From: Obrimoposthia wandeli
Lineage: Eukaryota
Length of the DNA: 64,000 bases
Assembly (NCBI GenBank): GCA_977020255.1
Contig: CDROCS010003961.1
Span: 186,001 to 250,000 of the forward strand
Direction: 5' to 3'
The first letter of the stretch is position 1; each line of letters begins with the position of its first letter. Position numbers and translations under genes: made by a program. Positions 10,986-54,453 of this stretch are shown piece by piece. Below the pieces are notes generated by a model. The model was not told where the DNA came from. It ran no database searches and saw only the letters and a program-made list of their open reading frames with translations.

Positions 10986-11050
10986 TAAGAAGTTGATATT
11001 TAGTAAAGATTTCAGAAGCGATTGTGAGAAGCCAATCAAAGTAGTCGTAC

Positions 11051-12928: not shown

Positions 12929-13662
12929 TGTTAGACCAAATTGTTGTATTGACAACAATTTTGCAAAATTGCAAAATCAAAGCCACAATTTTGCAAAATG
13001 GTTGTTTGATGGTAAATGCTATTATTAATCAAAAGGTGGTTGGGATGAAGTTGGGGTTGGGTCAAAAGCTTGTTATGGCACCTCGAACTACACCTACATC
13101 GGCTGTTGCATTGGACCCCGTTCTGAAAACACTTGCAAGGGCCACTGCTGCATGTCTTGAACACCTCAATCTGTTCCAGTGTTACATTGGCATATTTTTC
13201 ACAAACTGCTCTATATGTAATTCGTGGTCCTCCATGTCCTTTAGCGATATGAGTTGTATGGATCACATTGAAGAGCCCATCAGCACAGATGGATCGCAAA
13301 GCAGTATCTTTTTAGCGAGTTTCCTTACCGCAGTGTCGTCGACGCCATACTGTATAATATCGTATTTCCTCATCAGTCGATAGTCCATGGCACTCTTCTT
13401 TGCATCCGTATACGACTCCAGGTGTCGTAATCTAATCAGGATCTCGTCATATTGTTGTCTCGACATCATAGCAGAGACATTCACTCCTTTGAATTTGATC
13501 ATCTGGGCTATATAATCTTCAAATAGTTTGCGTATTGGATCCATTTTCAAATTGTGAAATAAATATTCTTGTAAATAGAAAAACAAATCGCTTCTATTTT
13601 ACCTAATTAATAAAATAAGCACTATTTTGCAAAATTGTTGTTTTCGCAAATTTTGTCTAACA
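12929..13662 (-). mobile_element. Internally deleted Ginger2/TDD-like (KRBA2-like integrase) DNA transposon, 734 bp
   Basis: TGTTAGAC...GTCTAACA termini, about 40-bp imperfect TIRs, TATA flanks. Minus-strand frames encode an N-terminal region, the integrase Zn-binding segment (HIAKGHGG...YANVT) and a C-terminal Cys cluster (CKC...CNSRCRCSSRCHNK), with the DDE core missing. Confidence 0.8.
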
Positions 13663-15499: not shown

Positions 15500-16230
15500 G
15501 ATGTAAATGAAAAAGATGGAAGTGATTTCAGCACTGAAGATGAATCTGCTACAAATGAAGAAGAATCAGAACCAAGAAACGTTTTTATTTCTAAATCGGA
15601 AATGGCCTGTACCGACCTCTTCAAGCATAAAAAATAGTAGAATTGCTCCTCAATATGTCCTAAGAAATCAAGGTATATCTACAAAATGCATATGTCAAAG
15701 AAGTGAGGAAATTAAATACCTACTTATTTACTAATTCGGAAGCTGACTAAAGGAATTAATAATTTTTATATCGATACATTAGAGCTCTAACTATTTATTG
15801 GATTATGTTTATGTAGTAGAAATGAACCATTGAACAGTTTTAGGAGTGCTGAAACATATCGAGGTTTATGATCTAATGACGAAATGTCTCGAAATTCTCA
15901 CAGGGCTGAAGATCTTTTTGTCTAATTGAAGCCTGATTAGAGTCTAATAAGGTCGCGTTCAATCTCAACTGCGTAATGGCATACATAGCTCATGAATTAG
16001 TTCCTGCTGATGAACAATTATTACATTCTGTTAAATCCGCTTGTCATCCTTCTTTGAGATTTATAGGATTTTCCAATCAATTATATATATACTAGCATTA
16101 TTATACGGTTGAGATTTTGGATATACATTACAAGGTAAAACCAAATGTAAAGATTTCATATTACTTAGTGTGTTCAATAAATATTGTGACAATCGCTATA
16201 AAATTTTTTCACAGCCTTGAATTTGTATTT
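15500..16230 (+). pseudogene. Decayed piggyBac-like transposase
   Basis: Acidic N-terminus, then MSRN, DEQLL and CDNRY..FHSL (the DN.FTS.L position) in the expected order. Many stops. Confidence 0.5.
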
Positions 16231-16384
16231 TAAAGATGATAAAATATTAAATATATATATCGAACTATATTATTATTATTAATAGTTTCGTTGAACCGGT
16301 AACTTTATATTTGTAACTATAGATATAGTGTGAAAAAGTAAATGGAATTTGTGAAAGAAAATTACAGATTTTTTATTTAAACCA

Positions 16385-16770
16385 TGCGAAGAATAGGAAG
16401 AAATAAACCCGAAATTTATGATATGCTAGTAGAGACATGGAAAGAAAAAGCACATTCACGTGCTACTGTTTTTCGTATCCTTTAAGATTTAGAACAAGGC
16501 AAGGGGAAATCTTTTGATGATGCTCATCAATCATAAAGTCCTCCAATTGCGAATATCCCAGCTAACGTAGCCACATTTAATGAATTATTTATGGAAAATA
16601 GTCGTATATAAATTCGTGAATTGATCTTGAGTGTTGGCACAATTTATTCCATCCTGCACAAGTAGTTATGCTCAAAATGGGTTCCTCAAGCTTTCATTGA
16701 AAAACAAAAGGAACAAAGAATAGAATGTTGTACAGAATGGCTGAATAAATTTCAAACTGAAAATTTAAAT
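16385..16770 (+). pseudogene. Mariner transposase, N-terminal half
   Basis: EIYDMLVET...SRATVFR...SFDD, LSVGTIYSILH and LCSKWVPQ (WVPH motif), with stops. Confidence 0.75.
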
Positions 16771-17728
16771 AATGTTAGATATGTGGCTCTTTAGCTTATT
16801 AGAATCCAAGAGAAATCATATGAATTATGATGATTCAAAGGAATTGAAAAATTTCCTTTTTCATGCTTTGAAAGGGATACCTAAAAAATTTATTCATCAA
16901 TATGATAATTTATTGGATGATTTATATGGTATTCTAGCAGTATCAGGAGACTACTTATAATATCTTATGTATCTTTATTTATATATTCTTTGTTTTATAA
17001 TAAACCTTGTTGTCTCATTATTTATTGAACACACCAAATATATTAAATGCTGATTTCCAAGTAAGATCTGAATAACCATGAAATTTAACAAAATATTGTT
17101 TATGTTTACCAGTACTCTTACTTTTTAATATTTTTTTGAATATTAAATAGTTTAGGTTTACTTGATATTACTTGTAGTTCTTGTTCGACAAATTTACCAT
17201 CAGTGATATTATTGTCAGCATCTTTAATAGTTTACATTATCGGGTTAATTTTTTGATTCATCTTACTTATACGAAATGTTTAGAGCTTCAATCAAATCTG
17301 ATCAAATCGTTTTATAAATGGAGTAGAGTTATGTTTTTTAAATAACGCACACACAAAAAATATTTTAGTAAAACGAAAATAACATCTTAGGGCACAGTAT
17401 CTCAAGTTAATAACATTCACGAACACTCATTTTAGTCGAGTGCGGCATTAACAACGGAGGTTTTCTCAAGTAAAATATCTTAAATTCAGTTCCTCCGAGT
17501 AGAAAACTCCATGTATAGTAGTGTAAAGTTCACCTTTCTAAACTTTAGAACATCAGTTATACATACAGAACGATCAGATCATTGGACCCCCTGGACCAAG
17601 CACAGATGAGGCGCAAATCAAGGTAAACATATGATCTGTGATTGATATGTGCTTGGCTTAAGGTGAGGACTGTTCTAACGCGTGATAAAGTACTCTTTAG
17701 GTTGAAGATGTACCACCACTGCACTTAC

Positions 17729-17855
17729 CAACCAAACAGAATGGTCTCTTGGCGAACTGGATCCTGCCCCTCCAGGTTTGGTATCGAGATCGGCACCCTG
17801 CGCTCCACATCCGAAGGCAGTATTCCGTAAAAAACCAGAATAGCATCACGAGTTC
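17729..17855 (-). CDS. KCNQ: KCNQ exon (S2 and S2-S3 linker): ELVMLFWFFTEYCLRMWSAGCRSRYQTWRGRIQFAKRPFCLV
   Basis: 127-bp exon with tttgcag| acceptor and |gtaagt donor, phase 0/1. Diagnostic WSAGCRSRY...R..FA.RPFC motif. Not in the ORF track. Confidence 0.97.
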
Positions 17856-20669
17856 CTGCAAAAGCGGAAATTCTAATATATTTTATATATTTGAAAAGTA
17901 AATTAATTTAAAAATTTTATAATGTTAAAAATTTAAACAAAAGTTTTTTAAGCATATTTTTTGTTTTTAAAAAAGTGCAGTTGTCTTGTAATTATGTGAC
18001 TGCATCTTGTCAATTTATAATCTATTAATAATCCATTATAAAATGATTTGAGAAAATGTTTCTAAATTAATTATGTTTATTTCTGAGAACTCAGTAAAAT
18101 AAGATTTCATATTACAGTTGTCAACAGAAAAAATTAGCTTAAATATAGTCAAATAGAGCATTGAACAAAAATGTATAGACATGAAAATCATATCTAGTAA
18201 AAAAATAAAATGGCTGAAATATGAAGTGGAATAACAAAATTACAAATTACAAATTTATAACCTGATGACGAATAAATTTCTCTGTAAATGAAATATAAAA
18301 GACATTGAAATTAATGTATAATTGTATTTGATTATTATTATTCATTCAATAATTTGAATGTGTATGTCGATTAACAATATTCATTTGAACAATTAACAAT
18401 TTCCTTATCAGCTAATTTATCATGAATCTAAAATACGTTTACTTAATTATCCACGATAAGATAATTAAATAATTCATCTTCTCAACTTCTGAAAATATTG
18501 ACAAATTTCATGTTCAAAATCACCATCAATTTTAATTTCTAAATAGAACTACTTTGGAAATATTTTTAAAACTTAATTCAGAAATAGTAACAAAAAATTG
18601 AGATTTTTATATTTGATTTATTGATTAATGAATTATTTATGAGTGTTAATCGAAATATATTTCATTTAGTAATCAATTTTTTCTTTGTATTAAAATTTAA
18701 ATCTCAGAACAATGTAACAATTTTTTGTTAGTTATTTTATGTTACCATTTATTTATAAATCATTTGACATATACTAAACTATTTCAAGAAAAGATTTTGA
18801 AGTATGAAATCCAAACTCTAAGAAATTGTTCAAATAAACATATTTTTATGATCTTTTAGAGTACGAAATGCATTGTTAATTTGACTATCTCAATTTTGAG
18901 TTCATCTTACAATTGTGGCATTCTAAATCACTTGCTAACGATTTAAGCAATTTTTATTTTCATTTATTTAATCGAACATAGGAAAGGCTGCTACAAATTG
19001 ATTTTTGTCTACTTATTTCAAACATAAATTCAGTATATTTTGTTTATATCAATATCATTGTAGTAGACAATTAAAACCGATATCAACTGAGTTTCACTAG
19101 TAAATTGGAAATTAATTGTCAGTTGATGGTTAGTCTTGCGGAATCAAGATAGTGTTTCTAGTGACTTAAACGACAAAGTAATAATAGCGCTGGTAGAAAA
19201 TAATTTTCATATGTCGAATGGATATGTTAGAAAATGTAATGACACACAAAATCAACTTTTAAATTAATAATTTCAAACCAAAATTTTAAATCGATAATTA
19301 TGTGGATGTTAATAGTTTATGATTAATCAATTATTATTGTGTGTATTAAAGTAAATTATTGGTCAAAATAATGTAGATTCAGAAGCAATGGACGTAAGTT
19401 AAATAATATTTTCCATAGCGATTTATCATACGCCGGTGTATCTTTTCAGTCAAAAGACCGTGTGTTTGAAGTTTGATCCAGGCTTGTTAGAGTTTATGAG
19501 ACTCCTCTAATAATGAACATCGACTGGCTTGTTAGGTCGGCTTTTATTTCCTTGCTTTGTTTATTCCGCTTTGTTTTATATGTTCTGTAGTGACTGTGTA
19601 AATCGTTTATTGACAAACAAACAGATTAAAATCAGTTTATATCATATTATCTTCTGAATGATGCTCAATATTGAGATTGTAAACAATGCTTTCATTGAGT
19701 TTGGAAAGTATGAATAAACAATTATGGATTACGTTTTTGTCAAGTGTAGAATGACCTTGATTTGTCGGTTGGTTGATGGCCATGAATAATTCCTCATGAA
19801 AATAGTATGTGATTGAAAGTTCACCATGTTTCTATAAATAAATAAAACAGAAATTGCAATTATGCAATTCGCATATTTATCAGTCTTATTTTTACAAAAT
19901 TCGAAAGATTTTCATATAAACCTCCCGATACATAAAATATGTATATATTAAAATCTTTTAATAGTTGTTAAAACTGCTGAAAATTGTTTTAATTGAAATT
20001 GACACAAGCTTTTTTAATGGGAGAATTTGATCTTCACTAATAAGGGATGACATTCACTATTTCAAAACACAACATGCTAGATTCACCAATATATTCATTT
20101 TCAAATAATCATCAAATATAAGTCATTAAACAACTGAAAATCTAATGAGTTTGAGAAAAGTATAAACCACATTGTGCTCAATGAAATAAAAAACAATACA
20201 TCACACTTTACATAAACATCTAATCCAACTTACCAAAATGTCTGAATATTATATAGCCCATACATACACATCACATACACACCAATGGCCAACACCCAAA
20301 TACTGCAGTTTAAGAAATGTTGGATCTAATTGGGCAATTCAATTTGAATTATTGTAATTCAATAAATGCAGTACAAAATTTATAATTATCAACGATCTAT
20401 TTCTGAGGAAGAATTTCCATACATTCCATACACATCATAAGTAGGTGGATGTGTCTGGTCTAATCCACTCACCCCTGTCCTTTAAAACCGTGTATGTGTG
20501 TGGAGTGAAATTTTCTACCTCCCAACCCAACACTCAAAAAAACCTAATTAACCCCATATAACACCCTTTAAAATTGAAAATCTCATAATGCTCCTAAAAA
20601 CGTGAGGAAGGTCCTGAGAGGCCGTCTAGTGGGCCAAAGCGTGCCCTCTGGGCCTGCGGAGGTTTGACG

Positions 20670-20905
20670 AGCTATACATATACAGGGTCACGAAAAAATT
20701 TTGAAAAAAAATTGTACGCGAGAATTTTTTTCGCACACTGCGGGCGCGAAAAATATTTTCCTTATCATTATTTATATCCATACATATATAGACAGAGTCG
20801 CGAAAAATTGTACGCAAGAATTTTTTTCGCACACTCAGGCGCGAAAAATATTTTCCTTATAAGAATTTATATTTAGATACATATATATAGGGTCGCAAAA
20901 ATTTT
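20670..20905 (+). repeat. About 95-100-bp subterminal direct repeats containing E2F-type GCGCGAAA motifs
   Basis: AAAAATTGTACGC.AGAATTTTTTTCGCACACT..GGCGCGAAAAATATTTTCCTTAT occurs twice, plus partial copies. GCGCGAAA (reverse complement TTTCGCGC) at 20744 and 20839. Confidence 0.75.
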
Positions 20906-20960
20906 TAAATCATCAACTACATAAATTGGAAATGATTTCAACATTTTCATTTTATTCAGA

Positions 20961-21081
20961 TGAGTTATCGTTGAGTCATAGGATGAGTCATCGATGAGTC
21001 ATAGAATGAGTCATCATGACTTAAAATGAACTTGACCTCATGATGACCTTAAATGACCTTGACCTCATGAGGTCATGACCT
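20961..21081. promoter_or_regulatory. Enhancer-like cluster: phased AP-1 sites followed by nuclear-receptor half-sites
   Basis: TGAGTCA at 20972, 20984, 20995 and 21007 (plus TGAGTTA at 20961). TGACCT at 21033, 21044, 21054 and 21060. Perfect AGGTCATGACCT palindrome at 21070-21081. About 260 bp upstream of the first element gene. Confidence 0.6.
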
Positions 21082-21343
21082 TAACTTAACCTTAAAATGT
21101 ATCCTCTGAAAAAAAAATTCTACCCTTCAAACATGTATGGTCAAGAAAATATTACTATTTTAAATCCAAAGATATATATGTATTCAAACATCAACAAAAA
21201 TTAAGAAAATACTATAAATTATTTGAATAATACGTTTTCATTGGACGTTGAACTTAAGCAACAAAAACTTAAGAAAATAATTATATTTTCAAAAAAACAT
21301 ACTCGCATTCAAACGTAGTTAAAAAATTTGATAAAAGTCTACA

Positions 21344-23271
21344 ATGTCGATTTGGATGAAGATGCGAGGTTCATCTATATAGGGATATCTCTCCAGTACA
21401 GCAGCGAACGCCACCACCGGTACAGTACATTGACTTACTTAGTCAAGACTCGTCGGTGGTGAGCGAAGAAGACGAAGGAGAAGCAGCAGCAAGAGCCGAG
21501 CTGTTGTTAGAAGAACCGCCATTGGCCAGCTCAACTCCGAGAGAAGAACCAATGAGCGTGAGAGGTGGGATACAGAGATCCCAATATATCGACCTAACTA
21601 GTCAGGATTCGATTGAGAATTGGGAAGACTGTACTCCCAGGCAAAACACAAAACCCACTCGTCCGGCAACTTCAGCAGTAGCAGCAAGGATATCCAATCT
21701 CTTCGAAAATTTTGAGGAGGCAAACAAAAGCCCCTGGAAATTGATCCCACTGTCTCAGCCGGAGATAGTACTCACACCAGACTCAGACGAGGAGCTATTC
21801 ACCGATGACGTTCTGTCGGATGGTGAGGATGACTTGACTCCATTCATCGACGAATGGATACAGCCAAGTATCGGAGCCCCAGGAGCCAACGATTCGATGG
21901 TGGCAGAATTGGACGAGGACGAGTGGCGCCTGTTCACCGATGATTGGGATGGTCTCACTCCCTCTGCAACTCCAACTCCGATAGCCGACAATACGGTGCC
22001 TGATTCGTTCAAAAGGCCGCAATCTCCGATACGTCCTGTTAGGAGAATAAAGGTGACGAATGAGGTTAGTCTATTAATATATTTAAAGTGTTTTTTATTT
22101 TCATTTTTATAAACTTCAACTAGATTTGGCACCGTCAGTGACCACGGTGGAGAGGCTGATTGAACCACAGTACTTGGCGAGTCAATGTAGCCAGGATGAT
22201 CCCAGGATTCAGCAGCGATACCTACCGACCCCGGCTAAATTTGAGGTAAATTATTATAAATTATTTAATTATTTTAATTATTCGCATAGGAAGCCGAATT
22301 GGTGGAGGAAATTTGGGAGGAGGCAACTCTCAGACAACCCCTCGATAGGAAACAAGCGGCGGTTAAGAAACCTCGACGCCATCGGGTCAAAACCCACACA
22401 GTCCATCGGAAGAAGGCCAAGTTGGTGAAACAGGCTAACCTGCCCGTCATCGAGGTAAATTATTTATATTTTAAAATTTTATTTATGTTTTTTGTTGCAG
22501 GAACCAATACAATTAACTGAAGAGACATGGGGCAAAATTTCTTCTTTCCCGCAGAAGCGAACGAGGTGGGCTGCTGTACGGAAAACGAGGCGCCTTAGAA
22601 AGGCGAAATCTTGTCTGCTCAAATCGACCAAAGTAACGATAGAGCGGCAGGAAAAACTTCCGTATCAGATTATTGAGGTAAAATTTAGATATTTAAATAT
22701 TTTTGAAATAAATGAACTTTATTAAAAATTTTATTAATGTTTTCTTTTGCAGGAACCTGTCCGGATAATTGAGGAGGCTTTGGAAGAAATTACTCCTTTC
22801 CCCAAGAAACGGACGAAGCGAGCAGAGGTGAAGAAGACGAGGCGCTCGAGAAAATGTAGCACCTCAATTGGCCATTATTCTTAGGCGGTCATTGGACGGC
22901 AGGAGATTCTCCCATCTCCAGTGGATGACGATCTAATTTTATACGAGAGGATCCCAGTCTCACCGATCGAGATTAGTCCGCCATCAAGTCAACGACGCCT
23001 ACAGGAGACATCACCGGCTTCTCCTCGTCCAACAACCAGCCAGAACTTAAAGAGGGCCTGGGATGAAGCTAGATTGGACGAATTCCAGGCGGAACTGGAT
23101 ACACCGGAAATGCTTACAGATTCGTGAGGGCAACATAATGCCGTCTCACGCCAGCTTCAGCGTGAGAAGGAGGAGAAACAGAAGAAAGCTCCGCGGAAGA
23201 GGAAGGCTACTGCTTCTATGTCGGGGCCATCAACATCGGCTGCACCTCCTCCCAAAAATTTGCAGCAATGA
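21344..23271 (+). pseudogene. Element gene A: 5-exon, disorder-like acidic-then-basic protein with two SIM-like motifs and three repeated exon modules
   Basis: Exons about 21344-22064, 22124-22245, 22290-22454, 22501-22677 and 22753-23271, separated by AT-rich GT-AG introns of 59, 44, 46 and 75 bp with GAG|GT donors. In-frame stops at 22882 and 23125. Probable 1-bp losses near 21350-21365 and at 22123. Confidence 0.75.
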
Positions 23272-23598
23272 TGACTTCGTAAAGATGTTTAAGAATATAA
23301 TTTATAAAAATTAGTTTCATATGTTTTCTTGTTAATATTTATTTAAATACCATCTTTAGGTTTATTAAAATATCAAGATGAAAAAAATAGTTAATTTATT
23401 CGACTGTGATTGGATTAATAAGGAATCATTTAAATTTTTTTAGGTTTAAATGTAAATGCAATGATTAGTTATAGATTTATTAAACTTTCATTTGATACAT
23501 AAAAATATATCATTTCATTGCCTGTGATTGGATTAAAAATGTCTTAAATTTATATATATATAGGTTCAAATTTATTAACCTCTTCATAATTAAAAAAA

Positions 23599-23904
23599 AT
23601 GGAATTCGTTAAATTGCAAAGTTTGGTAACGAAGATAGAAACAAACATCAGAATAAATGAGAAGAAAGGGGACTTAAGAAAGAGGATCCTCAATCAAAAT
23701 TTGTATGCTGCTGTTGCGACCGAGTGGACTCGCCGGGTGGAGATACAAGATAGGAGGCTAGCAGAACGACGTCGAATCGTGGAGTGGAATAAGAAGATCG
23801 AATTGGAAAAAAGGAAGGTGGATGAAAAAAGAAGATAAGAGATGGAGGATATTCGGAGATCAGCAAGAAAAAGAATCCTCCAGATTAAACCGGATATTTT
23901 TTGA
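23599..23904 (+). pseudogene. Element gene B: small basic, coiled-coil-like protein (about 100 aa)
   Basis: ORF 23599-23838 continues in frame past one TAA to 23904. Preceded by a perfect 15-bp repeat CTGTGATTGGATTAA (CCAAT box) at 23404 and 23522 and a TATA-like tract. Confidence 0.55.
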
Positions 23905-24024
23905 TTATTATTTTGTCTTTATTGATTAGGTTACATAATTGTCTAAATATTTTACATAATTGTTTAAATATTTTACATAAGCATACTAAATATAAACAAT
24001 TTTATATATAATGTTTTTTGTAAA

Positions 24025-24245
24025 ATGGATAATAAAAATTGGAATAAATTATACATAAAATTATCTCCAGATTTAATGGAAGATTATAAAAAAATATTTT
24101 TCAGAAAATGATACTGAGGAAATGGTTGGATATAAATTATGTAATTTAATTTCGAAATATTTAGGTATGTTTACATTTAATATAATTTATTTTAATATTC
24201 ATAGGAGAATTGACAATATATGCCAATCTTAACATGAAAGACTGA
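24025..24245 (+). pseudogene. Possible small spliced element gene (about 60 aa)
   Basis: MDNKNWNKLYIKLSPDLMEDYKK, a frameshift in an A/T run, FSENDTEEMVGYKLCNLISKYL, a 40-bp GT-AG intron (24165-24204), then GELTIYANLNMKD*. Confidence 0.4.
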
Positions 24246-24333
24246 ATCCTGAGTACTTTGTTATTTTAATAAATTTTTGATTAATGATTATTTTCGTTAT
24301 AAACAACGGGATTTGTTGCAAATTTAGATAATT

Positions 24334-24822
24334 ATGCAGGAATATATCATAGATTTTGAGGCTTTCATTAACAAAAATGATGATTATATTATAAAATAAT
24401 TATTTATTATGGATGTATGCGACGTTTTTCATCCTTTGCATTTCATATTTCAAATAGATATCCCGTTTAAAAGTTTAGATTATAAGAAAAAATTTACTAA
24501 TTTATATCTAACTAATTACTTTCATTTATTAAAATGGAAAGAAGGACATAAGGCTTTTTGTGAAATATGTATTTTCGATACAATAACATCTAATTTTGAT
24601 ATAGAAAATGGAATTTTTCATGTTTTAGATGAAATGGATGGCAAAAAGTATAAGACTTTAAAAAAATATTTTCCCAAATTGAGGTTGAATACTTTAAATA
24701 TTTCACATGATCATCTATTAAAAATTCCACGAAATATTTGCTGTCCATATCGTAATCATGGTGACCATTGCGCATATAAAAAATGTTTAAGTCTTTCTTA
24801 TTATTACTTGACATGTAGATAA
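24334..24822 (+). pseudogene. Element gene C: DEDD/DnaQ-like exonuclease-fold candidate
   Basis: ATG at 24334 is in frame with ORF 24409. YIIDFEAF...YIIK*L has one TAA (24397) at the expected KEL position. Later HLLKWKEG and C-terminal CPYRNHGDHCAYKKC. Confidence 0.55.
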
Positions 24823-25052
24823 ACAATTCTTCTAATTGGAGAAATTCATTATTAAAATTTTACAACTAATTACAAATAAGCCTTTTGATTGGAAGAATAA
24901 AAATATTTTTTTCAACCAATAACAGATAAACAATCCTTCTCAGTGGAGTGATAAATTCAATTTTTTAATCCAATAGGAAAAGAGCATGTGTGTATAAATT
25001 TTAGTATATAAGCAAACACTTTCTTCATTTAAATCCCCGACTATTTGAAATA

Positions 25053-25723
25053 ATGACTATGGTAAGAATCTATACTTATTATTTCTTTATTAATATTTAT
25101 GATTTCAGATTACTTGTAACCTGTTTCCAGCATATTGTGGTGCTTCGGCTCTGCATGGAGGAGAGACCTACATGGAGATAATGTCCGCCTACTATCGGAC
25201 AACGTCTTGCGGGCTTCACTTCTTCGTCTGTCCCTTCTGCAGAACAATGGAGGAGAAGGAGTTTCGAGACTTCTTCGGTGAACATCGAGCTCATCTATTC
25301 TGTTTCACGGCCAACAACAAGAAGAGGGATATCGTGCAATTGGTGCGCGATTCGCAGGCCGCTCCAGCACCTGCTCCAATTCCAGTTGCAGTGATTCAAC
25401 CCGTTTACGGTCCTGCGATTGGTCCTTTTCTCCCGACTCCTGATTCTGCTGCACCATCCCCTCAAATGATTAACAATGAGTGGATGAATGACATCTCTAA
25501 GGAAGATTTTGAGGAGATGGCGCCAGCAACCCAATACTCAAACAATGACTGGATGGAAAATATCACCCAGTCAGATTTCGAGATGGAGCAGCCTCAGTGG
25601 AGCGATAACTCCTGGTTGGAGACCATCGAAGAATCCGATTTCGTCGAGATAACGGACGACAGCTTGATGGATTCCGTCAATGAAGAGGACTTCGTACCAG
25701 CTACAGTTGGATTGCCTTCATGA
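25053..25723 (+). CDS. Element gene D: 2-exon protein with a Cys/His-rich N-terminus, Pro-rich linker and four acidic W/F repeats
   Basis: ATGACTATG|gtaaga, 47-bp intron (25062-25108) ending ttcag|. Exon 2 is in frame with ORF 25172 and uninterrupted to 25723. Upstream CCAAT boxes and TATATAAG at about 25005. Confidence 0.7.
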
Positions 25724-25816
25724 GGTATTTTTTTATTATTATTTTTCAGATTCTTTTTTAAAATTGTAATTATATATATATTATTTTTAATTAAATATAT
25801 ATTATTGTAACTATAT

Positions 25817-27528
25817 TTGAACGAGTCTTTAAAAAATTTAACGGCATCTTTAAATGCATGGCCAATCACACAGTCAGTGTTCTCAGCTTCGGTTAACGAT
25901 AAGGGGATTTTTCCGTATAAAATTATAAAAACAGAAATCCCACCCATAACTGATTTTGAGGGTGTAAGTCTTCAAGACTATAATGAGGCCCGTACATTTT
26001 GGGCGAATAATTGTCGAAATCTTCTAGAATATATGCTTTATTATATGAAGTTAGACATTTATCTTTTAACTGATGTTTTTGAGTCCTTTCGTGTAAAATC
26101 TTTAGCAGAAGATGGGCTAGATCCCATGCATTTCTTTAGTTTACCTGGTCTTTCATGGGCAACAGCAATAAAAACTCTTAAAATTAATATTGAGTTACTG
26201 CAAGATCCCGCGATGTATCAAATGTATGATTATGGTATACGCGGTGGAATAACTTTTGTCAACCAACATCATGTTGTCAAAAATCAATCCACGGAGATTC
26301 TGTACATCGACATTAATAATTTGTATGGGTGGGCGCTTACTCAACCTCTACCTGATGCCAACTTTAAGTGGGTTTATGATGAGGAAGAGTTGAATAAGTT
26401 GATGACAGATTTGGCTACTGTTGATACAGTTTCATCAGATATTGGCTATTTCGTTGAGGTTGACTTATCAATCCCTCCCAATGTGGATGATAAATTAGAT
26501 GATCTCCCTGTAGCACCTGTTCATCAATGCCCACCTAATTCAAAGGTTAAGAAATTACTGTTAACACATGAAGACAAGTTGAATTATGTTGTGCATTGGC
26601 GGCTTCTTCAATTATACTTAAAGTTGGGAGCGAAAGTTACTCGAATTCATCGTGCTATAAGCTTCAGTCAAAACTTTGTGTTTAAAGACTATATTGAGAA
26701 GAATTCTAGAAAACGTAATTTGGACATTAGCAAATTCGATCGACCTTTTTACAAGTTAAAAGTATTAGTCTTTTTGGAAAAACGGTTGAGGACTTGCGGA
26801 AACGTATTTGTCTACGGTTTTGCAATGATGAGCGTAAACTAATAACATATACTAGCAATTACAACTTCAAGCGTAGTTTTACAATTGCAGATGACTTGGT
26901 AGCATTGTTATTAGGAAAACAGAGTATTTGTCTTGATCGATCGAGTTATATAGGTCAAACGGTTTTAGACATTTCTAAACTCAGATTGTACGAGCTTCAA
27001 TACATAGAATTAGAGAAATATCGACAAGAATTCAATTGTGAGATCAAAATCGCAGCTGGGGACACTGACTCTTTCTTTTTAGAATGTAGGAATGTTAGTT
27101 TAAATAATCAATGATTTCCGGCAATGTTTAGGGACAACTTACTAAATACCCATAAATATCCCGCTAACCATCCTCTACACTCTATGAGTTTAAAGGATAT
27201 TATCGGGAAATTTAAGGATGAAAGCGAGGGACAGGTTTCGTATGATGATTGTATTTTCCTATGCCCTAAATGCTACAGTTTACATGCATCTAATAATACA
27301 TGTTCAATGAGAGCAAAGGGTGTGGGAAGAAACAATCTTACACATGAGGCCTACCGGAAAGTTTATGATACTGGGTGTATTGAAAGCGTTGAGCAAACTA
27401 GATTTATTTCAAGAGCCCATCAACTGTATTCCCATAAATCAACCAAAATCGCTTTGAGTAGTAATGACGACAAGCGCTTTTGGGTAGAAAAGAACGCTAG
27501 CCTGGTTTATGGACACTTCCGAATTTAA
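25817..27528 (+). pseudogene. polB: Protein-primed family B DNA polymerase (pPolB), N-terminally truncated and frameshifted
   Basis: KGIFPY, YMKLDIYLLTDVFESFR, GLDP.HF.SLPGLSW, RGGITFV, YIDINNLYG (motif A), YKLK/SLFGKT across a shift near 26765 (motif B), AGDTDS (motif C), GKFKDE, RAKGV, ALSSNDDKR. Confidence 0.95.
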
Positions 27529-27790
27529 ACGGTTTTCATTTTTTGATTTTTTTTAGTTTAGTTTTTTAAAATTTTAGGTCTATATGGCACTTTGACTCTA
27601 ACTTTTTGTTATTTCAATATATCTTTTAGGATGGACCTTATCTTTGCTGACAGATCTCATTGTGATGTTGTGTTTATTAAATGTATTAAAAAATTCGTCT
27701 TATTTCTTTTATTATTTTACCCTTATATTTTTTATGGATTTAAAAAATAATTCAAAATAAAACATTAAAAATATTTATTTTTGTAACACA

Positions 27791-28120
27791 CTAATCATTT
27801 TGCAACGATAACCATAAAATACATAAATGTCCACAGTTTCTCGTCGCAGGATCCTGATATTGTATCTTGTTGTAAAATACTCTTCTTCGTCCTTTTTGAA
27901 TAGTTGAAACAAGTTTGTGTGGATAATACATTGTAAGTGGATCAAATACATGTATTGTCCACTCTCTAACATAAATAACTATCCAATGTTCTCCTGGTAA
28001 ATTCGAAGTATGAGTATTGATAATGTAACCTCCAGATTGAAAAAATGGAATCATATCAATAGGATAAACTCCATTGAATTTATCACCCAAAACCTTCTTT
28101 GCTGATTCTTGTACTTGTAC
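27791..28120 (-). CDS. Adenovirus-like (adenain, C5/Ulp1-type) cysteine protease, 5' end damaged
   Basis: F.GVYPID, IINTH...GEHW, FDP and QYQ.....CG.LC give the His-Asp-Gln-Cys catalytic set. No start codon is retained. Confidence 0.9.
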   Translation of the reverse strand, partial: VQVQESAKKVLGDKFNGVYPIDMIPFFQSGGYIINTHTSNLPGEHWIVIYVREWTIHVFDPLTMYYPHKLVSTIQKGRRRVFYNKIQYQDPATRNCGHLCILWLSLQND

Positions 28121-28122
28121 TT

Positions 28123-28269
28123 AAACAAATTATTAAAGTTCGATTCCTTGTTAGCTTCCTGATACAAATCATCAATTATTATTACATCTTCGTTTTTCAA
28201 TCTTTCACACCAATTTGCATCAAATCTTTCAATAAATTGTATTCCCTATTCCACATCAAAGACAATTAT
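28123..28269 (-). pseudogene. Packaging ATPase (A32/FtsK-like) stump, Walker B region only
   Basis: Translation ...LKNEDVIIIDDLYQEANKESNFNNLF matches the Polinton ATPase hhhhDDL..EA......LF motif. No Walker A. Abuts the protease. Confidence 0.65.
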
Positions 28270-28274
28270 CAACA

Positions 28275-28637
28275 ATGGACGATAACCAACGGGTATTAAA
28301 CGATGAGGAAGATATAGAAATGTTCGAAGAATCGGATAAGGATATGTATGAAGAAGTGAAACAATATTTCAAATACAAAGTCAGATTCTTGAAGAAGGCT
28401 CAACTGAGTGCTTTAGTAAATCCTGTGACAATTGAAAGAAGAAAGTTCAGCTACTATCTATCAAATATTCAAAAACCAGATTTTCAATATCTTAAAGAGA
28501 AAGTTGAAAAGGCAGTTCCGAATTTCACTTTCAATAAGAACGTATTTTATATCCGAGGAGCCGATGAAGCATTTCTAGATGACTATGGAAGATATGTTGA
28601 TTTGATTCGTTTCCGAAAAAGAAGCAATGGACTCTAA
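28275..28637 (+). CDS. Element gene E: unknown 120-aa protein with an acidic N-terminus
   Basis: Intact ATG-to-stop ORF inside the TSD-bounded element. No recognised motif. Confidence 0.6.
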   Translation: MDDNQRVLNDEEDIEMFEESDKDMYEEVKQYFKYKVRFLKKAQLSALVNPVTIERRKFSYYLSNIQKPDFQYLKEKVEKAVPNFTFNKNVFYIRGADEAFLDDYGRYVDLIRFRKRSNGL

Positions 28638-28860
28638 CAATTCGACTTTATGGTTACAAGAAAGATGAAATGGGAACAAAGTTGCCTATGTGGAAAATTG
28701 AACGTGCTCATATTTCAATGTTTTAACTTTTGCGTGTAATAAATTGTAATCGGTTTTACTATGTTTCCTTCATTTAATAATCAGTTTTATTTTTTAAATA
28801 TTTGTATCTTATATGTATTTTGTATAAACATTGTTTTTTAATCAGTTTCCTTATTTTAGA

Positions 28861-29271
28861 ATGGATTCTCTTCTGAGATGTGTAGGAAATTTTTATTATC
28901 CAGAAAGAATTTCAAAAGAAAAACTATGTAATATATTAAAGAAGCATCAAATTATACGAATTATGAATCCTGTGAAAATATCAAAAGTGGAGAATAAATA
29001 TCTCATCGAAATTTTAACAACATCTGATATTGATCAATTGAAAAATATTTTGGGATTTTACATTCCTGATTATGTATATGAAGGAAATTGTTTCCAGCTT
29101 GAAACTGATCCCAGTCTGGATTTTAAAAATTATCTAGGATATTTGATTGCTCCAATTCTAGATGAAGAACTATGGAATATCTCAATACGTCTCAATGGAT
29201 ATTTTGCTGATGATGGGAAAATGCAGCCTCTCTGGACTTTGAGTGAAGCCAATATGTTGTTTTATGTTTAA
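28861..29271 (+). CDS. Element gene F: unknown 136-aa TIR-proximal protein (OB-fold SSB candidate)
   Basis: Intact ORF with ATG right after ttattttag. Two further decayed homologues in this window, each beside a TIR. Confidence 0.7.
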   Translation: MDSLLRCVGNFYYPERISKEKLCNILKKHQIIRIMNPVKISKVENKYLIEILTTSDIDQLKNILGFYIPDYVYEGNCFQLETDPSLDFKNYLGYLIAPILDEELWNISIRLNGYFADDGKMQPLWTLSEANMLFYV

Positions 29272-30899
29272 TAAATATTTTGAAAAATAATTTTGACTCG
29301 TATTTTGTTTTTTCTCCTCTAAATTATATAGATTTAATTTTTCTCTCTGACCTAAATATTTAACATGTAGTAATCTAAAATCTATCATAAAAATAGTAGT
29401 AATATATTTGAAATTTCGTCTGTGATAAGCCGCCGGGGTTAATATGGATTCCAGTGGTCTTCTCTAACCACTTTTGAGATTCGCTGTAAAATTTTTAAAA
29501 ATTATGGGGGAGGGTGAATGGAGACATACATACACGAAATTTCACTCCACACACCTACAAGAAATTTCACTCCACGCACATGCTCGGTTTTAAAGGACAT
29601 TGGGGGACCCCCTTCCTTCCCCCTTTGGGTAGAATGGAGACACACATACACGAAATTTCACTCCACACACCTGCACGGTTTTAAAGGACAGTGGGCGGAG
29701 GGGGTGTGTATTAGACCGAACACATCCACCTACTATCATAAATTAAAGTTAAATTAAATTAACACTTTAATTTAGTTTTCTTTAATAAATAAATGGATTT
29801 CAAATATAATTATATATTTATTTACCATAGGAAAAAATAAGCACCTTAAAAGCTTTTTAAATAATTTACAATTTTGTACCTTAAATATATATATAATTAT
29901 AGCTTGATAGCAATTCTTCAAAATTCAGAACCTTTTTGAAATACAAATTTTCAACCATGGTTTTTTATCATATAATATACCACAATTTTTTTAAATTAAG
30001 TATACATACATATTAACTACCATAATTTAAAATTCAAACAAATTAATCCTATTTATCGTCTCTTTTAAAATTGTCATTTTGCAGATCTGTGCTGTTATTT
30101 GAATAGTGAGACAAACAATTTATAAACATATTATTGTACATTCTATTATAAAAACTCTTAATTCAAAATGTTTAAAATCATAATAACGATAAAAAAACCA
30201 CATCTTTATAATTTATTTACCGAGTTATCCGGACTTATTCTTAGTTTATAGTTTATTCTAGATCTGTTTTAGATCCCTTTCATATGTTGGACTATGCGAA
30301 TAAACTATCAGGAACCAAAATTATTGCAAAATGTTTCTTATATAATATTTAGTAACTTGTATACATTTATTTTCGTTGTCATTAATGTATACAAATGAAT
30401 TCCTCTAATATAAATAAAGATAAACATTTCAAAAGTCCGACATATAGATTTTACTGTTCGGATAGTTAAGATATTTATAATTGTAATTTAAACAGAAAAA
30501 ATACAATTATTTACATGACATGATTATTTTAAAAAATATATTCAGAAACATAAAATTGACTTTTTGGTATTTCTATAAACATTTCCTATATTTTATTGAA
30601 CATTATCTGGTTTAGGAAAACTTTAAATTCTGAATATAATTGAAAATGGTAAATTATTTTCTCAAACTTTAAATGGATAGGATGGGTGGCTTTTTTCATT
30701 GAAGTTGCACGATTTAATAATTATGCCCAGTGAGTAAACATAACTGGCAATGTTCGATGAACAAACGTGTCTATTCAGAAATGTTTCTATTGTTAGTATT
30801 TGATTAGTATTATGAATATTTGACAGAATTCTACTTCTTATAAATTATAAAAGCATAATCATCGTTCAGAAATTCTTAGTTTGGTTATTGGAGATTTAC

Positions 30900-30974: not shown

Positions 30975-31217
30975 TCACAAAATAAATAGCACAGTCTGCT
31001 TAACACTAATTCCCTTTGCTCTCATCTGGAACTTTCCGTCTATAGTTTCTAAGCTATATGATTTGGAGCGTAAAAATACCCATTGCTTATATCTACATTG
31101 CTTACTCTCATCCTCAAACTTGCCTATCGCAGTATTGGCTAAAGGATGGTTTATAGAAAATTTTAATGTGTCTAATAATCCATCTGAAATCATTGCAGAC
31201 AACAGTGTAGCTTGCAC
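30975..31217 (-). pseudogene. polB: Second pPolB C-terminal fragment from a related Polinton
   Basis: LLDTLKFSINHPL...IGKFEDES...VFLRSKSYS...RAKGI aligns by eye with 27124-27330. Confidence 0.85.
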
Positions 31218-32399
31218 GTCTACATTATGACACTTTAGAAAAAAATTCTAATTTGGATATTAAAAAGTTCGATTTTTAATCATTTTTAATCATTTTATGT
31301 TTATATTTATGGATTTTAGAATACATTTTATCGTGTATATTTCAGAATAATGTAAATTAAGATGCAAAGTTGAATCTTAGATCATTTATAAGGATTTTAC
31401 TGTGTAATTTTTTCTGAATAATGTAAATTTCGAATTAGAAAGATCGATTTTCACTCAATTTATAGATTAGAAGATACATTTACCAAGGATTTTTAGAATA
31501 ATGCAAATTATAATGCAAATAATTGATCATTTTTCAATGAATTTACCCATATTTCTATAAATTTTCTTTGATTTTAGTTTAAGGACAAAATTACTTTCAG
31601 AAGAAATAAGTTGTATTTCCTGACGATTCTTATGTGCCAGCGCGTCAATAAAGTTTTCATGGTTTTTTATATGATAGATGCACTAATTGGATTTCTCTTC
31701 AACATATTTAAAGGATTCCTCCGTGTAATAAAGATATAATTTGAAGAGAGTATATAATGATCAATAAGTGAGAGTTTATTACGGATAATTAGAGAGATTA
31801 CTTTGATCAATTAGTCAATTTACGATCAAGAGTATATTATTAATCTGCATCTTTAACTAAGAATTTTATTAAATTTCAAAATGAATCATTAAATCTAAAA
31901 TGTTCTCTACTTTCTTTTAAACAAGTTTTTTTGTAAAAGAATCTGTAAAAGTTTTGTTACTAAAAATGATTAGTTTCAAAGAATATTGTTTGAAGATTAG
32001 CTTATTTAAGGAAATTAATCTATGTAATAAATAATTAATTTAATTATCACTAGTAAACATCGGATATCAATACTATATTGGAACATTTTGTTTAGAAATT
32101 ATTACATCAGGACTAGAAATGGATTAAATTATATTCTCTCTTTCGATTCATTTAAACCTAAAATTATTTTCAAGTATCATTTATTGATATAATTTATTCA
32201 ATAATGTTTAGAGTATGTATTTATCTCAGTCATAATTTATTCATATTACTTGAGTCTATTGATAACTATATTCTCAAAAAATAATTTTTCATTGATCGAT
32301 ATATCAAACAAGAAAATTCTTACAAAACTCTACAAGCTTATTGATGTTATCAATATTATGGAAACTTATTTTCAAACATCAACAACTAGTCGATTTATT

Positions 32400-33540
32400 A
32401 CTTCAAATAAATCGGTTTAGTAAAGAAATTATACATAAAAGGTTCTATAAGATAAATAAAGAAGATGCATGAGATTTGTTACATTTAGATGAGATATGAC
32501 ATGGGTGTTTATAAGGTTTAAGAATAGAAAATAATGGATAGAGTTTTAGAAGAGAAACTCACGATTTGTTCAAAAGGTTCTCTAGAAAAGTAATTAATAC
32601 ATAGAAAGATAAGTAGCGGTTCAGAGGAGAAATTAACGATACTTTTAGGAGGTCTCAAAAATATAGTCTAGATTGGATTATGAAGTGAAATTGATGTGAT
32701 TTATTTAAGAGATTTAGGAATGGAATTTAGGAAGTTTATTACATAGAAGAGGAAATTTACGAGGTATTTAGAAGGTTATAGAAGAAATATTAATGCATAG
32801 AATGGTTATAAAAGACAAATTGAAAAAGTGTTTAAGAGGTTTCAGAAGATATATTATAGATTTGAAGGGTTTAGAAAAGATTTAGCAGGAATGTTTAGGA
32901 GGTATCAGAAAATATAGCCTTAAAAGGTGCTTAGAGAAGTATTTAAAAGGAGTATTTAGGAAGTTTCAAAAAAAAAGAAATTAAATTTGGTTCATAGGGG
33001 AAATTAAAGGGTTCCAAGAGAATTTAACCGAGGAGTTCAGAAGAGAAAATATAACCTTAAAGGAGATAAAAGGAGGATTTAACGGATATTTTAAGAGGTT
33101 TCAGAAGAGGAAATATAACTTAAATTGGTTCAGAGAAGAATTTATATGGGGAGGTTTCAGAAGAAATTAAAGGAATTTAGAGGGAGATTTAACAGGGAGT
33201 TCAAGAGGTTTCAGAAGAAGAAATTAGATGAATTTAGAGGGAAATTTAACGGTGAGTTCAGGAGGTTTCAGAAGAAATTAGATGAATTTAGAGGGAAATT
33301 TAACGATGATGTTTAGATGGTTCAGATTAAAGCTTTGAAGGGTTTAGAAAAGATTTTTGCATGGATGTTTAGGAGGTTTTGATAAATATAGCCTAGATAG
33401 CTAGATTGAATGAAAATAAAAGCGATGTATATAAGATTAGTAGGATTCAGAAGAAAAAATATAGGATATATTTTACTTTGAAAGGAAATTTAATGTGAGT
33501 TAGAAGATATTTAGGTGGTTTAGAAGGGAAATAAGACTAC
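32400..33540 (+). repeat. Purine-skewed, decayed 54-57-bp satellite
   Basis: Best units at 33151 (54 bp), 33205 (57 bp) and 33262 (54 bp): GAGGTTTCAGAAGAA(GAA)ATTAGATGAATTTAGAGGGAAATTTAACG. Related decayed copies flank them. Confidence 0.75.
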
Positions 33541-49079: not shown

Positions 49080-49770
49080 GATCATATGATCATATATAAT
49101 CCTGAAACTTACTAAAGATAAACGTTGTGATATATTAAAAAGGCATCAAATTATAAGTGTTGAGAATTCTATGAAAATATGAAAAGTCAAAAATAAATAT
49201 TTAATTAAAATTGTAGCAAAATTTGATCTTGATCAGTTCAAAAATATTTTAGAATTTTACATACCTGATTTGAAAAAAAATCTTTAGAGATTGAAACTTG
49301 TTTCTAGAGATGAAGCTAGTTATGCGGTTTGTATATATTTAAATAGAAACATATATGATATGTCAATACATATTAATGGATATGATGTTGCTGCTGATGA
49401 AAACATACAGCGTTTTTTTTATAAAGCTAATATGATGTTTTATATTTAATATTTGTGTTGATTTAATAAATGTCTTAAAATTAATTTTTGTCTTGTGTTT
49501 TGTTATTTTTTTAAAAAATGTATATAGCTTTGATCTACATATTTTTGCCATAAAGAGCGATTGAAATAAATTTGATAGACAGGGATAAACAATGATATAT
49601 ATTACATATGATCAATAAAAATAGATAATTTTTTAAAAAGATAATGCACACAAACTCCATACTCCAACATAAAATTTTATTTCATACACACATACGCGGT
49701 TTTAAACGATATAGGATTGCTAACTCTTCTTAGAAGTGGTGCATGATGTGGATTAGAACGGACATAATTA
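49080..49770 (+). mobile_element. Old decayed Polinton right end: gene F homologue plus eroded TIR
   Basis: CDILKRHQII...KNKYLIKI...DLDQFKNILEFYIPD...ANMMFYI is homologous to 28861-29271. CACACATACGCGGTTTTAAA...GTGGATTAGAACGGACA at about 49685-49765. Confidence 0.7.
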
Positions 49771-53899: not shown

Positions 53900-54453
53900 A
53901 AGATAAAATTTATTTAAAAAATGATAAAACATCATATTAGCTTCACTCAAAGTCCAAATCTTATCTTATCTTATTCCATATATCTTCATCTAAAATTGGA
54001 GCAATCATATAACCTAGGTCATCTCTAAAAGCCAGACTGGTATTAGTTTCACACTGGAAAGAATTTTCTTCGTATACATAACCAGGTATGTAAAATTCCA
54101 AAATATTTTTTAAATTGATTAATATCAGATGTTGTTATAATTTCAATTATATATTTATTTTCCACTTTTGATATTTTTACAGGTTTTAAAACTCGTATAA
54201 GTTGATGCCTCTTTAGTACATTACAGAGATTCCCTTTAAATTCTTTTCGGATAATAAAAAGTTTATATATATATTAGAAAAGGATCCATTCTAAAATAAA
54301 GAAACTGATTAAAAACAAAATGTTTATAATAAATATAATTTATTACATGCAGAAATATACAAATGAAAGAAACACATGCACGGTTTTAAAAGACAATGGT
54401 AGCCCCAGGGGAGAGGGGGAGGGGGTGGACTAGACCGGACATATCCACCTACT
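53900..54453 (-). mobile_element. Polinton end fragment: gene F homologue (minus strand) with its 5' end facing a TIR
   Basis: Reverse complement of 53930-54330 aligns with 28800-29270. The TIR ends GACTAGACCGGACATATCCACCTACT at 54453. Confidence 0.85.

Follow-up and report, generated by a model that had tools for sequence, protein, structure and literature searches.

The analysed window, a stretch of 64,000 nucleotides, contains a Polinton-derived unit of 9,295 bp (20440..29734) adjoining KCNQ exons of the animal host. The unit is very probably an inactive, deleted copy of an ordinary-sized Polinton, with A–F as accessory genes of the parent and E and F as a predicted SSB pair. This SSB pair is the new point; literature searches found no Polinton report of such an SSB. 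The compact layout without capsids is probably the product of ordinary decay and should not be regarded as defining a new element class. Incomplete Polinton copies, like Polintons without core genes, have already been described.

The ends of the unit are those of a Polinton (AG...CT). The 6-bp target-site duplication ATCATA is found by flank comparison at 20434..20439 and 29735..29740. This hexamer occupies 6.7e-4 of the 6-mer positions of the window, and a shared flank was found in none of the five other left/right end pairs checked there. The left terminal inverted repeat (TIR; 20440..20513, plus strand) starts with AGTAG and the right TIR (29653..29734, minus strand) ends with CTACT. Their alignment comprises 74 bases on the left and 82 on the right; it contains a single 8-bp gap, and 7 of the 74 gap-free positions are mismatched (divergence ~9%). 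The end motif AGTAGGTGGATGTG is present at 20440 (+) and 29721-29734 (-). If up to two mismatches are allowed, it has five matches in the window (0.16 expected), and none of 100 shuffles contained five or more. The left TIR is followed by a non-coding subterminal region with ~95-bp repeats (20514..20910, plus strand), which is common to another left end (10716-10964); the right-side subterminal repeats start at 29512. With AGTAGGTGGATGTG at both ends and ATCATA on both sides, the initial annotation was correct in describing a unit that was integrated as a whole. A recombinant of two neighbouring insertions is ruled out by the identity of the duplications. Other family ends lie at 10716 (+), 35699 (-, carrying an internal fold-back), 54453 (-), 60842 (+, degenerate) and 61046 (-, partial); the earlier count of five is about right, provided that the last two are included.

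For comparison, 66 related loci with 3,510 ORFs were obtained in a second scan of the genome collection, the first scan having given no match. The best match of the protease, the ATPase and gene C of the unit is a near-complete Polinton without annotation on contig JANOGQ010000345.1, here called L014. Three core genes survive in the unit, as the initial annotation had proposed on sequence grounds, and all are incomplete. The protein-primed DNA polymerase B (pPolB; 25811..27528, plus strand; PF03175, E 9e-15) is 5'-truncated. Its match begins at residue ~509 of the 1112 residues of the L014 polymerase, to which it is only ~31% identical, so that ~510 N-terminal residues are missing relative to L014. 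It also carries one frameshift near 26760 and one stop at 27112-27114. Relatives of this pPolB contain an endonuclease VII domain (PF02945); the corresponding region is deleted in the unit. In a tree of 39 of 95 rows, with no named reference Polintons among them, the pPolB forms a clade with 17 other short-contig proteins (support 100/96). No pPolB match was found in the phage and plasmid collections.

The adenain-type cysteine protease (27791..28120, minus strand) has no start. It is 42% identical to the L014 protease (E 4e-20) and matches Pfam weakly (E 0.13); the L014 protease itself matches PF00770 (E 1e-7). Directly adjoining it at a tandem AGTACA repeat is the stump of an A32-type packaging ATPase (28120..28245, minus strand), which matches the L014 ATPase with E 2e-4 and 35-39% identity and Pfam weakly (E 0.07). 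The stump corresponds to L014 residues 70-109 only. Walker B is retained, and Walker A and the C-terminal half are missing.

Within 20440-29734, a profile of 17 integrase ORFs from related loci found no integrase, and profiles made from the putative capsid ORFs of such loci found no capsids, which bears out the absence of both noted earlier. In L014, one strand carries in order the A32 ATPase (PF04665), a pX-like gene, an integrase (rve and chromo), ORFs of 349, 111 and 446 residues, the protease, a TBP-like gene and a homologue of C; the polymerase, unlike that of the unit, is oriented divergently. An integrase gene and two ORFs of capsid size are still present in L014, and A, B, D, E and F are not detectable in it. 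Size, position and motifs suggest that these two ORFs are putative capsid genes. Pfam, PHROG and PDB sequence/profile searches with the putative capsid ORFs gave no confirmation. When the break points of the unit's ATPase and protease are placed on L014, they are 4,629 bp apart, and the interval holds the integrase and the two capsid-sized genes. Since the ATPase stops after Walker B and adjoins a protease without start, the absence of integrase and capsids is best explained by deletion. In total, three break points lie inside core genes: at the polymerase start, at the ATPase start and at the ATPase-to-protease join. These mid-gene breaks and the L014 order favour the deletion derivative, one of the origins proposed in the initial annotation, over a natural capsid-less satellite; the unit is indeed Polinton-derived and defective. 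Weighing against the deletion reading, the parent gene order is read from one distant locus (L014, 31-44% identity) of the 66, and no full-length sibling turned up in the 64 kb of host sequence.

From the missing stretches, sized on L014, we infer a parent of at least ~15.7 kb. Its polymerase would be of the endonuclease-VII-associated type and gene C a conserved Polinton gene, with A–F as its own accessory genes. The ATPase-to-protease join probably results from a single deletion of ~4.6 kb, in which the integrase was lost along with both capsid genes. In Polintons, terminal-protein-primed strand-displacement copying starts at the TIRs, and a retroviral-type integrase inserts the element, leaving 6-bp duplications. 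The parent would have been copied and inserted in this usual manner, and the SSB encoded by E and F would coat the displaced strand during copying. With a pPolB lacking the terminal-protein end and no integrase, the unit itself can neither copy nor insert itself. Only four internal stops are present in 1,946 codons, which corresponds to ~1.3% decay since the end of selection. These stops (in A, B, C and pPolB) and the frameshifts in pPolB and E agree with the nonsense and frameshift lesions for which the copy had been called probably inactive.

Gene F (28861..29271, plus strand) is an open 136-codon ORF predicted to encode an OB-fold SSB of the T7 gp2.5 type. Its paralogue E (28275..28726, plus strand) has one frameshift near 28605. 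The E/F alignment scores 72 (shuffles 29±5), and none of 5000 shuffles reaches this score. In two frames, E covers positions 3-98 and 99-135 of the E/F family profile, which included the first frame of E. Sequence searches of F in Pfam, PHROG and PDB (sequence and profile) assigned no family, a word-indexed search of near-length proteins found no homologue, and the ESM Atlas yielded no more than leads below 0.9 with F and no lead with P0129. Thirteen similar-sized remote relatives of F were found. The model of F has a pLDDT of 87.7; an earlier model from six window-only rows was unusable (pLDDT 39). Among 48,161 solved chains, the four best matches to this model are T7 gp2.5-type OB-fold structures: DUF2815 (4klk; Z 8.0, r.m.s. 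deviation 2.8, 104 residues aligned), Enc34 SSB (7.7, 3.2, 107), ASFV CP312R (7.2, 4.1, 130) and T7 gp2.5 (6.8, 3.1, 107). The next structure has a Z of 5.5, and the best Z of 8.0 is at the level where the search tool warns of a common arrangement. Foldseek against the PDB also ranks 4klk, Enc34 SSB and CP312R on top, none at E<=0.001. In BFVD there are 52 matches at E<=0.001 (best 9e-8, TM 0.70), and the named ones are giant-virus proteins. An RRM-like fold, suggested by the secondary-structure pattern, is not supported by the fold searches. Compared with two other copies, F has dN/dS values of 0.42 and 0.39, indicating purifying selection. On the evidence of the model, E and F look like a duplicated SSB of the T7 gp2.5/giant-virus fold, which would bind single strands. 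A 135-aa ORF beside the ATPase in L014 was rejected as a relative of E and F (probability 0.1%, z at most 2.1; a C-terminal pattern by eye only).

The predicted F shares the OB fold with the T7 gp2.5-like SSBs (T7 gp2.5, Enc34 SSB, DUF2815, ASFV CP312R), a group that also includes Nucleocytoviricota and mriyavirus SSBs. It differs from them by a sequence identity of only 5-14%, a shorter chain, the absence of the acidic C-terminal tail and a gene that adjoins a protein-primed polymerase. The role suggested for E and F, protection of the displaced strand, is that of the SSBs of the phi29/Bam35 group, PRD1 P12 and adenovirus DBP. In the available text of three sources, the SSBs of protein-primed viruses are non-OB or remotely OB-like (PMC4889955, PMC8276246, PMC11886824), and none is among the F fold matches listed. 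According to the accessible part of one of these, a survey of DNA viruses (PMC4889955), the SSBs of protein-primed systems have no relation to OB folds, and phages and giant viruses are where T7-type SSBs occur. Searches did not find the pairing of a gp2.5/giant-virus-type SSB with a protein-primed polymerase in print. So far, the polymerase has been almost the sole basis for inferring how replication proceeds in Polintons; no SSB is named in the Polinton papers checked. If the assignment is true, the pair is a candidate link between Polintons and Nucleocytoviricota SSBs. Gene F is small and open and thus directly testable, and its 13 relatives provide a probe for the spread of the SSB among Polintons and for exchange between giant viruses and Polintons.

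Genes A–F together occupy about 4.56 kb, or 49% of the unit's length, close to the half stated before. Gene A (21360..23280, plus strand) is spliced, with AT-rich candidate introns (43-75 bp, 83-91% AT) between exons of higher GC (46-54%). An acidic, S/P-rich N-terminus with two YIDL(L/T)S motifs, which we take to be SIM-like, precedes three repeated basic exons. Its reading frame is disrupted by one stop and further frame lesions; purifying selection is seen between exons 4 and 5 (dN/dS 0.16, p=1e-5). Gene B (23599..23904, plus strand) is a basic, 101-codon open reading frame with one internal stop and probably encodes a coiled-coil protein. Gene C (24334..24822, plus strand; one internal stop) is a conserved Polinton accessory gene whose homologue in L014 is an intact ORF (33% identity, E 2e-16); a degenerate upstream part may begin near 24030. 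It has a DxE motif as well as clustered Cys/His residues, and the DFE and HCA motifs align with the L014 homologue. By motif it may be DEDD/Maelstrom-like, probably a putative DEDD-fold nucleic-acid-binding protein. A leucine-rich repeat match of the gene C profile (E 3e-5) was rejected as a sum of many weak repeat matches; there was no accepted database match for the C family, and neither C nor P0129 had a match in the phage collection. Gene D (25053..25723, plus strand) is read as spliced, with a short first exon and an intron at 25062-25108. Its Cys/His-rich N-terminus contains one CxxC and its acidic tail three Trp-containing repeats. A word-indexed search of near-length proteins found no homologue of the N-terminus.

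Searches of Pfam, PHROG, NCBIfam and PDB sequences assigned no family to any of A–F. The earlier description of all six as unrecognised thus holds for A, B and D and not for C, with its L014 homologue, or for E and F, with their predicted SSB fold. Nor is a host-manipulation module supported: E and F model as replication proteins, C is common to an integrase-bearing Polinton, and no LxCxE or CR1 (Rb-binding) motif was found in A–D, the frames of A being partly broken. This absence also distinguishes A–D from the adintovirus 'Oncoid' genes (PMC8502044), which D resembles in its position just upstream of pPolB and in its CxxC motif. A regulatory role is still conceivable for A, B and D. Their composition tentatively suggests nuclear regulators, with A as a chromatin-/SUMO-binding protein and D as a zinc-binding acidic activator, an assignment that is somewhat doubtful.

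How the deletions arose can be read in two ways. In the first, for which the chances are nearly even, a complete Polinton was inserted and then trimmed in place by host deletions, which makes the layout unique to this locus. The window is crowded with broken elements (mariner, Bel/Pao, hAT and other Polinton pieces), and the TIR divergence of ~9% also fits. Against it, such trimming would have had to spare ends and accessory genes in each of three independent deletions, in a copy whose point mutations indicate a low age. Alternatively, and quite conceivably though at less than even chances, the deletions occurred during extrachromosomal copying and the 9.3-kb form was copied and inserted by the polymerase and integrase of a helper Polinton. 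It would then be a defective-interfering form, a non-autonomous subfamily keeping the SSB and regulatory genes. Both ends and the duplication are intact despite three deletions totalling more than 6 kb, decay is only ~1.3%, and in a 540-bp family fragment outside the unit (53911..54453, minus strand) a TIR passes after ~80 bp into the sequence immediately upstream of an F copy. Amplified polB-less Polintons are described for a butterfly in the available part of a preprint (10.1101/2025.02.07.637071). Against this, the layout is seen in one copy only, and the 7 differences between the TIRs in 74 positions point to an older insertion. The other family pieces in the window are all fragments, which means that deletion by the host is common in this region. 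The same question of movement as partial copies applies to the Polinton-1_CB remnants of C. elegans and the polB-less polintons of Pieris, which are likewise incomplete and TIR-bearing; the unit differs in having lost the integrase and capsid block while keeping a large accessory set. Rather doubtful is the existence of a Polinton lineage in animals that uses a duplicated gp2.5-type SSB of its own for replication and sheds helper-spread defective-interfering forms, which would lack integrase, capsids and polymerase and keep the SSB and spliced regulatory genes.

A natural satellite or linear-plasmid-like lineage without capsids and integrase, whose accessory half manipulates the host, is very improbable. 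The unit does lack integrase and capsids, and no homologues are known for A, B and D, from Pfam, PHROG, NCBIfam or, for D, a homologue search. Moreover, cytoplasmic linear plasmids are Polinton derivatives that lost the morphogenetic module according to the available text of one source (PMC11161782), and in that of another, capsid, protease and ATPase are jointly absent from 9 of 72 Polintons (PMC4028283). However, the core genes are cut mid-gene instead of being cleanly removed, protease and ATPase stump are purposeless without capsids, E and F resemble replication proteins in their models, LxCxE/CR1 motifs are absent and a nearby integrase relic has the same affinity to L014. The deleted Polinton shares AG...CT TIRs, the 6-bp duplication, pPolB, an adenain-type protease and an A32-type ATPase with Polintons/Mavericks (Polintoviricetes; 'adintoviruses', PMC8502044). 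It differs from them in its length (9.3 kb versus 15-20 kb), its truncated core genes, the missing integrase and capsids, its spliced accessory genes and its SSB pair. E and F might also be OB-fold proteins that this one family acquired late from a giant virus, with no role in Polinton replication. The giant-virus proteins among the best predicted-structure matches and the lack of a match of the E/F profile below E 0.1 among the ORFs of the 66 loci speak for such a capture; it is unlikely, given that purifying selection acts on F among copies of the family and that F is duplicated, lies within TIRs in two family pieces and has similar-sized relatives.

Outside the unit, relics matching the TBP-like and integrase genes of L014 are found in the window. 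The integrase relic (17069..17327, minus strand), ~3 kb from the unit, comprises a Polinton integrase C-terminus and chromodomain with 44% identity to L014 (E 1e-10). Its nearest locus among the 66 is L014 (E 6e-11; next 0.012), and the profile of 17 integrase ORFs recovers it as 17157-17327. A possible, weak relic of a minor-capsid N-terminus (16043..16159, minus strand; E 0.03 versus L014), which the profile search did not recover, lies downstream of it, as in L014. A degenerate third copy of gene F is present at 49105..49446 (plus strand; E 5e-20).

The Polinton-type element occupies positions 20440–29734 of the window (9,295 bp). The alignment of its terminal inverted repeats (TIRs) covers 74 bases of the left and 82 of the right one and has seven mismatches in 74 gap-free positions; an ATCATA duplication is present at both ends. 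The end motif AGTAGGTGGA has five matches in the window (at most two mismatches; 0.16 expected). The compact unit bounded by a target-site duplication, as proposed in the initial annotation, is real. Outside the unit, family ends are located at 10716 (+), 35699 (−) and 54453 (−), with a degenerate end at 60842 (+) and a partial one at 61046 (−). The bases flanking the three intact ends pair with no partner end in the window. The end at 35572–35699 contains a perfect 42-bp fold-back of subterminal sequence (35577–35660), as strand switching close to the terminus would give. At 60842–61046, the degenerate left end is combined with a subterminal repeat in inverted orientation to form a MITE-like relic of about 205 bp that has no clear target-site duplication.

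The unit polymerase (a PF03175 match) has at least 120 relatives among those listed, including a group with 46–59% identity on short contigs. In a tree of 39 sequences picked from 95 covering the region, with no named Polinton as reference, it groups with 17 short-contig relatives (support 100/96). Scanning genome collections of bacteria and archaea yielded 66 loci with related polymerases. All are on MAG contigs and are probably eukaryotic contigs binned into bacterial or archaeal MAGs. Several carry an integrase and a protease beside the Polinton-type polymerase. Two big Polinton-like loci (L029 and L032, on 39- and 44-kb contigs) have many unassigned accessory ORFs upstream of the protein-primed DNA polymerase B (pPolB); large accessory blocks thus exist in integrase-bearing relatives.

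One locus, L014 (contig JANOGQ010000345.1), is close to a complete Polinton. One strand encodes, in order, an A32 ATPase, a pX-like product, an rve integrase with chromodomain, ORFs of 349, 111 and 446 aa, an adenain protease, a TBP-like protein and the homologue of gene C; a pPolB bearing endonuclease VII is on the opposite strand. Judged by size, position (compare the available text of PMC4028283) and motifs, the 446-aa ORF presumably encodes the major and the 349-aa ORF the minor capsid protein; neither assignment was confirmed by sequence or profile searches. The TBP-like ORF (1115–1606, −; PF00352, E = 3e-10) adjoins the protease and has a degenerate homologue at the start of the window (546–834, −). 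Such genes in animal Polintons may merit separate study.

The core genes of the unit are cut in mid-gene, not cleanly missing. The polymerase starts abruptly at about 25811, homologues reach further upstream, and about 510 N-terminal residues are absent relative to L014. The N-terminal part of Polinton pPolB carries terminal-protein and vOTU domains (PMC11161782, available text). The ATPase matches only residues 70–109 of its L014 counterpart, the first 69 residues being lost, and it ends at a distance of about 30 bp from where gene E begins. It joins the start-less protease directly, at a tandem AGTACA repeat. The same two points are separated by 4,629 bp in L014, and therefore one deletion would explain why the integrase and the two capsid-sized genes are all missing. 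The unit and the missing lengths add up to about 15.7 kb, a normal Polinton size. We are fairly confident that the capsid-less layout results from ordinary deletion. The element without integrase and capsid had been read as a defective or satellite element mobilised in trans or as a deletion derivative with a host-manipulation module; the cut core genes and the spacing in L014 support derivation by deletion.

Independent support for the deletion comes from an integrase relic at 17069–17327 (−). Of the 66 loci, L014 gives the best match to it (44% identity to the L014 integrase), as it does to the protease, ATPase and gene C of the unit. Beyond it, a weak minor-capsid-like trace (16043–16159, E = 0.03) was missed by the profile search. 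Together with the TBP-like relic, these remnants indicate that integrase-bearing Polintons of the same affinity as the unit, though not necessarily of the same TIR family, were once present in the genome. A mariner-like transposase relic (16340–16770, +), recognised by eye, separates the integrase relic from this possible minor-capsid trace. A second pPolB relic (31008–31247, −) is 43% identical to the unit polymerase and so belongs either to another Polinton family or to an older copy. Between this relic and the family end at 35699, degenerate repeats with strong G skew (32500–33500; plus-strand units like FRRFQKKLDEFRGKF) are possibly a decayed gene of the element ending there.

The copy in the window is dead. 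Polintons replicate by TIR priming with the terminal protein of the polymerase and subsequent strand displacement, and insertion by the integrase leaves a 6-bp duplication. The unit may have lost these parts before it inserted, a helper then moving it, or it may have been trimmed in place afterwards; the two are about equally likely. The first course is favoured by low decay (four internal stops in 1,946 codons, about 1.3%) next to deletions that exceed 6 kb and spare both ends. The second is favoured by TIRs that diverge by about 9% and by neighbouring elements that are all fragments. Incomplete Polintons are already known. In the available text of the respective sources, partial copies are described in C. 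elegans (10.1101/2024.01.15.575659) and polB-less copies in Pieris (10.1101/2025.02.07.637071), a capsid gene is not recognised in 13 of 72 Polintons (obtained by subtracting the stated counts; PMC4028283) and an anole survey found no copies that were non-autonomous (PMC3014272).

Genes E and F are paralogous to each other: their score is 72, compared with 29 ± 5 for shuffled sequences (0 of 5,000). Further copies of F are found at 49105–49446 and 53911–54335, the latter joined to a TIR. Comparison of F with these two copies gives dN/dS values of 0.42 (p = 0.017, 90 codons) and 0.39 (p = 0.026, 54 codons). Single-sequence searches with F gave no homologues. A profile of the window copies retrieved 13 proteins of 113–202 aa among 1.84 billion (E = 4e-6 to 9e-4), which align as a single family. 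Modelled with these relatives, F has a pLDDT of 87.7 and a pTM of 0.79 (pLDDT 39 without them). Searched against 48,161 solved chains, the model matches DUF2815 best (Z 8.0, r.m.s.d. 2.8, 104 aligned), followed by the SSB of phage Enc34 (7.7, 3.2, 107), ASFV CP312R (7.2, 4.1, 130) and T7 gp2.5 (6.8, 3.1, 107). The fifth match has a Z of 5.5, and lower ones are mostly other OB folds. Foldseek places 4klk, the Enc34 SSB and CP312R at the top of the PDB matches, none below E = 0.001. Among viral models it gives 52 matches at E ≤ 0.001 (best 9e-8); those that have names are uncharacterised giant-virus proteins. T7-like SSBs are present in Nucleocytoviricota (PMC11253617, available text), and we infer that the giant-virus matches are these proteins. 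Judged by the predicted model, the E/F pair very likely has an SSB fold and probably an SSB function. During replication of the parent element, E and F would coat the displaced strand.

The E/F profile matched none of the 3,510 ORFs of the 66 loci, many of them short, below E = 0.1, and a candidate ORF in L014 gave no significant match, which argues against a general role of an E/F-type SSB in Polintons. Two loci (L046, 6832–7218, +; L038, 6868–7254, +) have an ORF of 129 aa located between the integrase and pPolB. It has no database match, and its pattern may be that of an SSB, either phi29-type or otherwise OB-like. In that case Polintons may draw on more than one SSB family. In the available text, SSBs of protein-primed viruses are described as unrelated to OB folds (PMC4889955); the exceptions given in PMC8276246 and PMC11886824 are no more than divergent OB-like proteins of phages. 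The SSB pair is a real new point and open to testing. Its novelty means that no Polinton SSB was found in the literature searched, short of proven absence: the accessible text of Polinton and PLV papers searched by term mentions none, the nematode Polinton preprint has one 'single-strand' occurrence, and supplements (unnamed 'Adintoc', genome maps) could hold one.

All of genes A–F had been regarded as unrecognised. This holds for A, B and D, for which family, profile and related-locus searches gave no homologue, and not for E and F, with their predicted fold, or for C. Gene C has a homologue in one of the 66 loci, namely an intact ORF of L014 (33% identity, E = 2e-16); in both, a DFE lies N-terminally and a Cys/His cluster C-terminally. 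We take this motif set to be a DEDD/Maelstrom-like pattern; family and profile searches did not confirm that identity. Gene A is spliced, with short AT-rich GT-AG candidate introns between GC-rich exons. Two introns lie in frame between GAG and GAA codons and a third is one base off in our coordinates. Two repeated exons have a dN/dS of 0.16 (p = 1e-5). The front part of A is acidic with two YIDL(L/T)S motifs, presumably SUMO-binding, and the rear part is basic. Gene D has one CxxC and an acidic tail, and its position is that of the adintovirus 'Oncoid' genes (PMC8502044, available text). No LxCxE or CR1 motif is present in A–D. A regulatory role of A, B and D is a guess from composition.

The AT-rich window also contains relics of Hsp70-like, Bel/Pao, DDE_3 and DUF659 sequences. 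A KCNQ potassium-channel exon is located at about 11050–11233 (−; within 11039–11314; E = 1e-17 to KCNQ2), and a second KCNQ-like exon (17700–17882, −) was recognised by eye; these exons of a host channel gene point to an animal host. The Polinton left end at 10716–10990 is about 60 bp from the donor site of one KCNQ exon, and the integrase relic falls between the two. Outside the Polinton, a broken integrase-like ORF (12931–13598, −) with a terminal tesmin/TSO1 CXC domain (PF03638) presumably belongs to a KRBA2/Ginger-type element. An Hsp70-family (Hsp110-like) ORF at 43432–44067 lies within a Bel/Pao element (43142–47795), between the direct repeats and the pol region, and is a possible gene capture.
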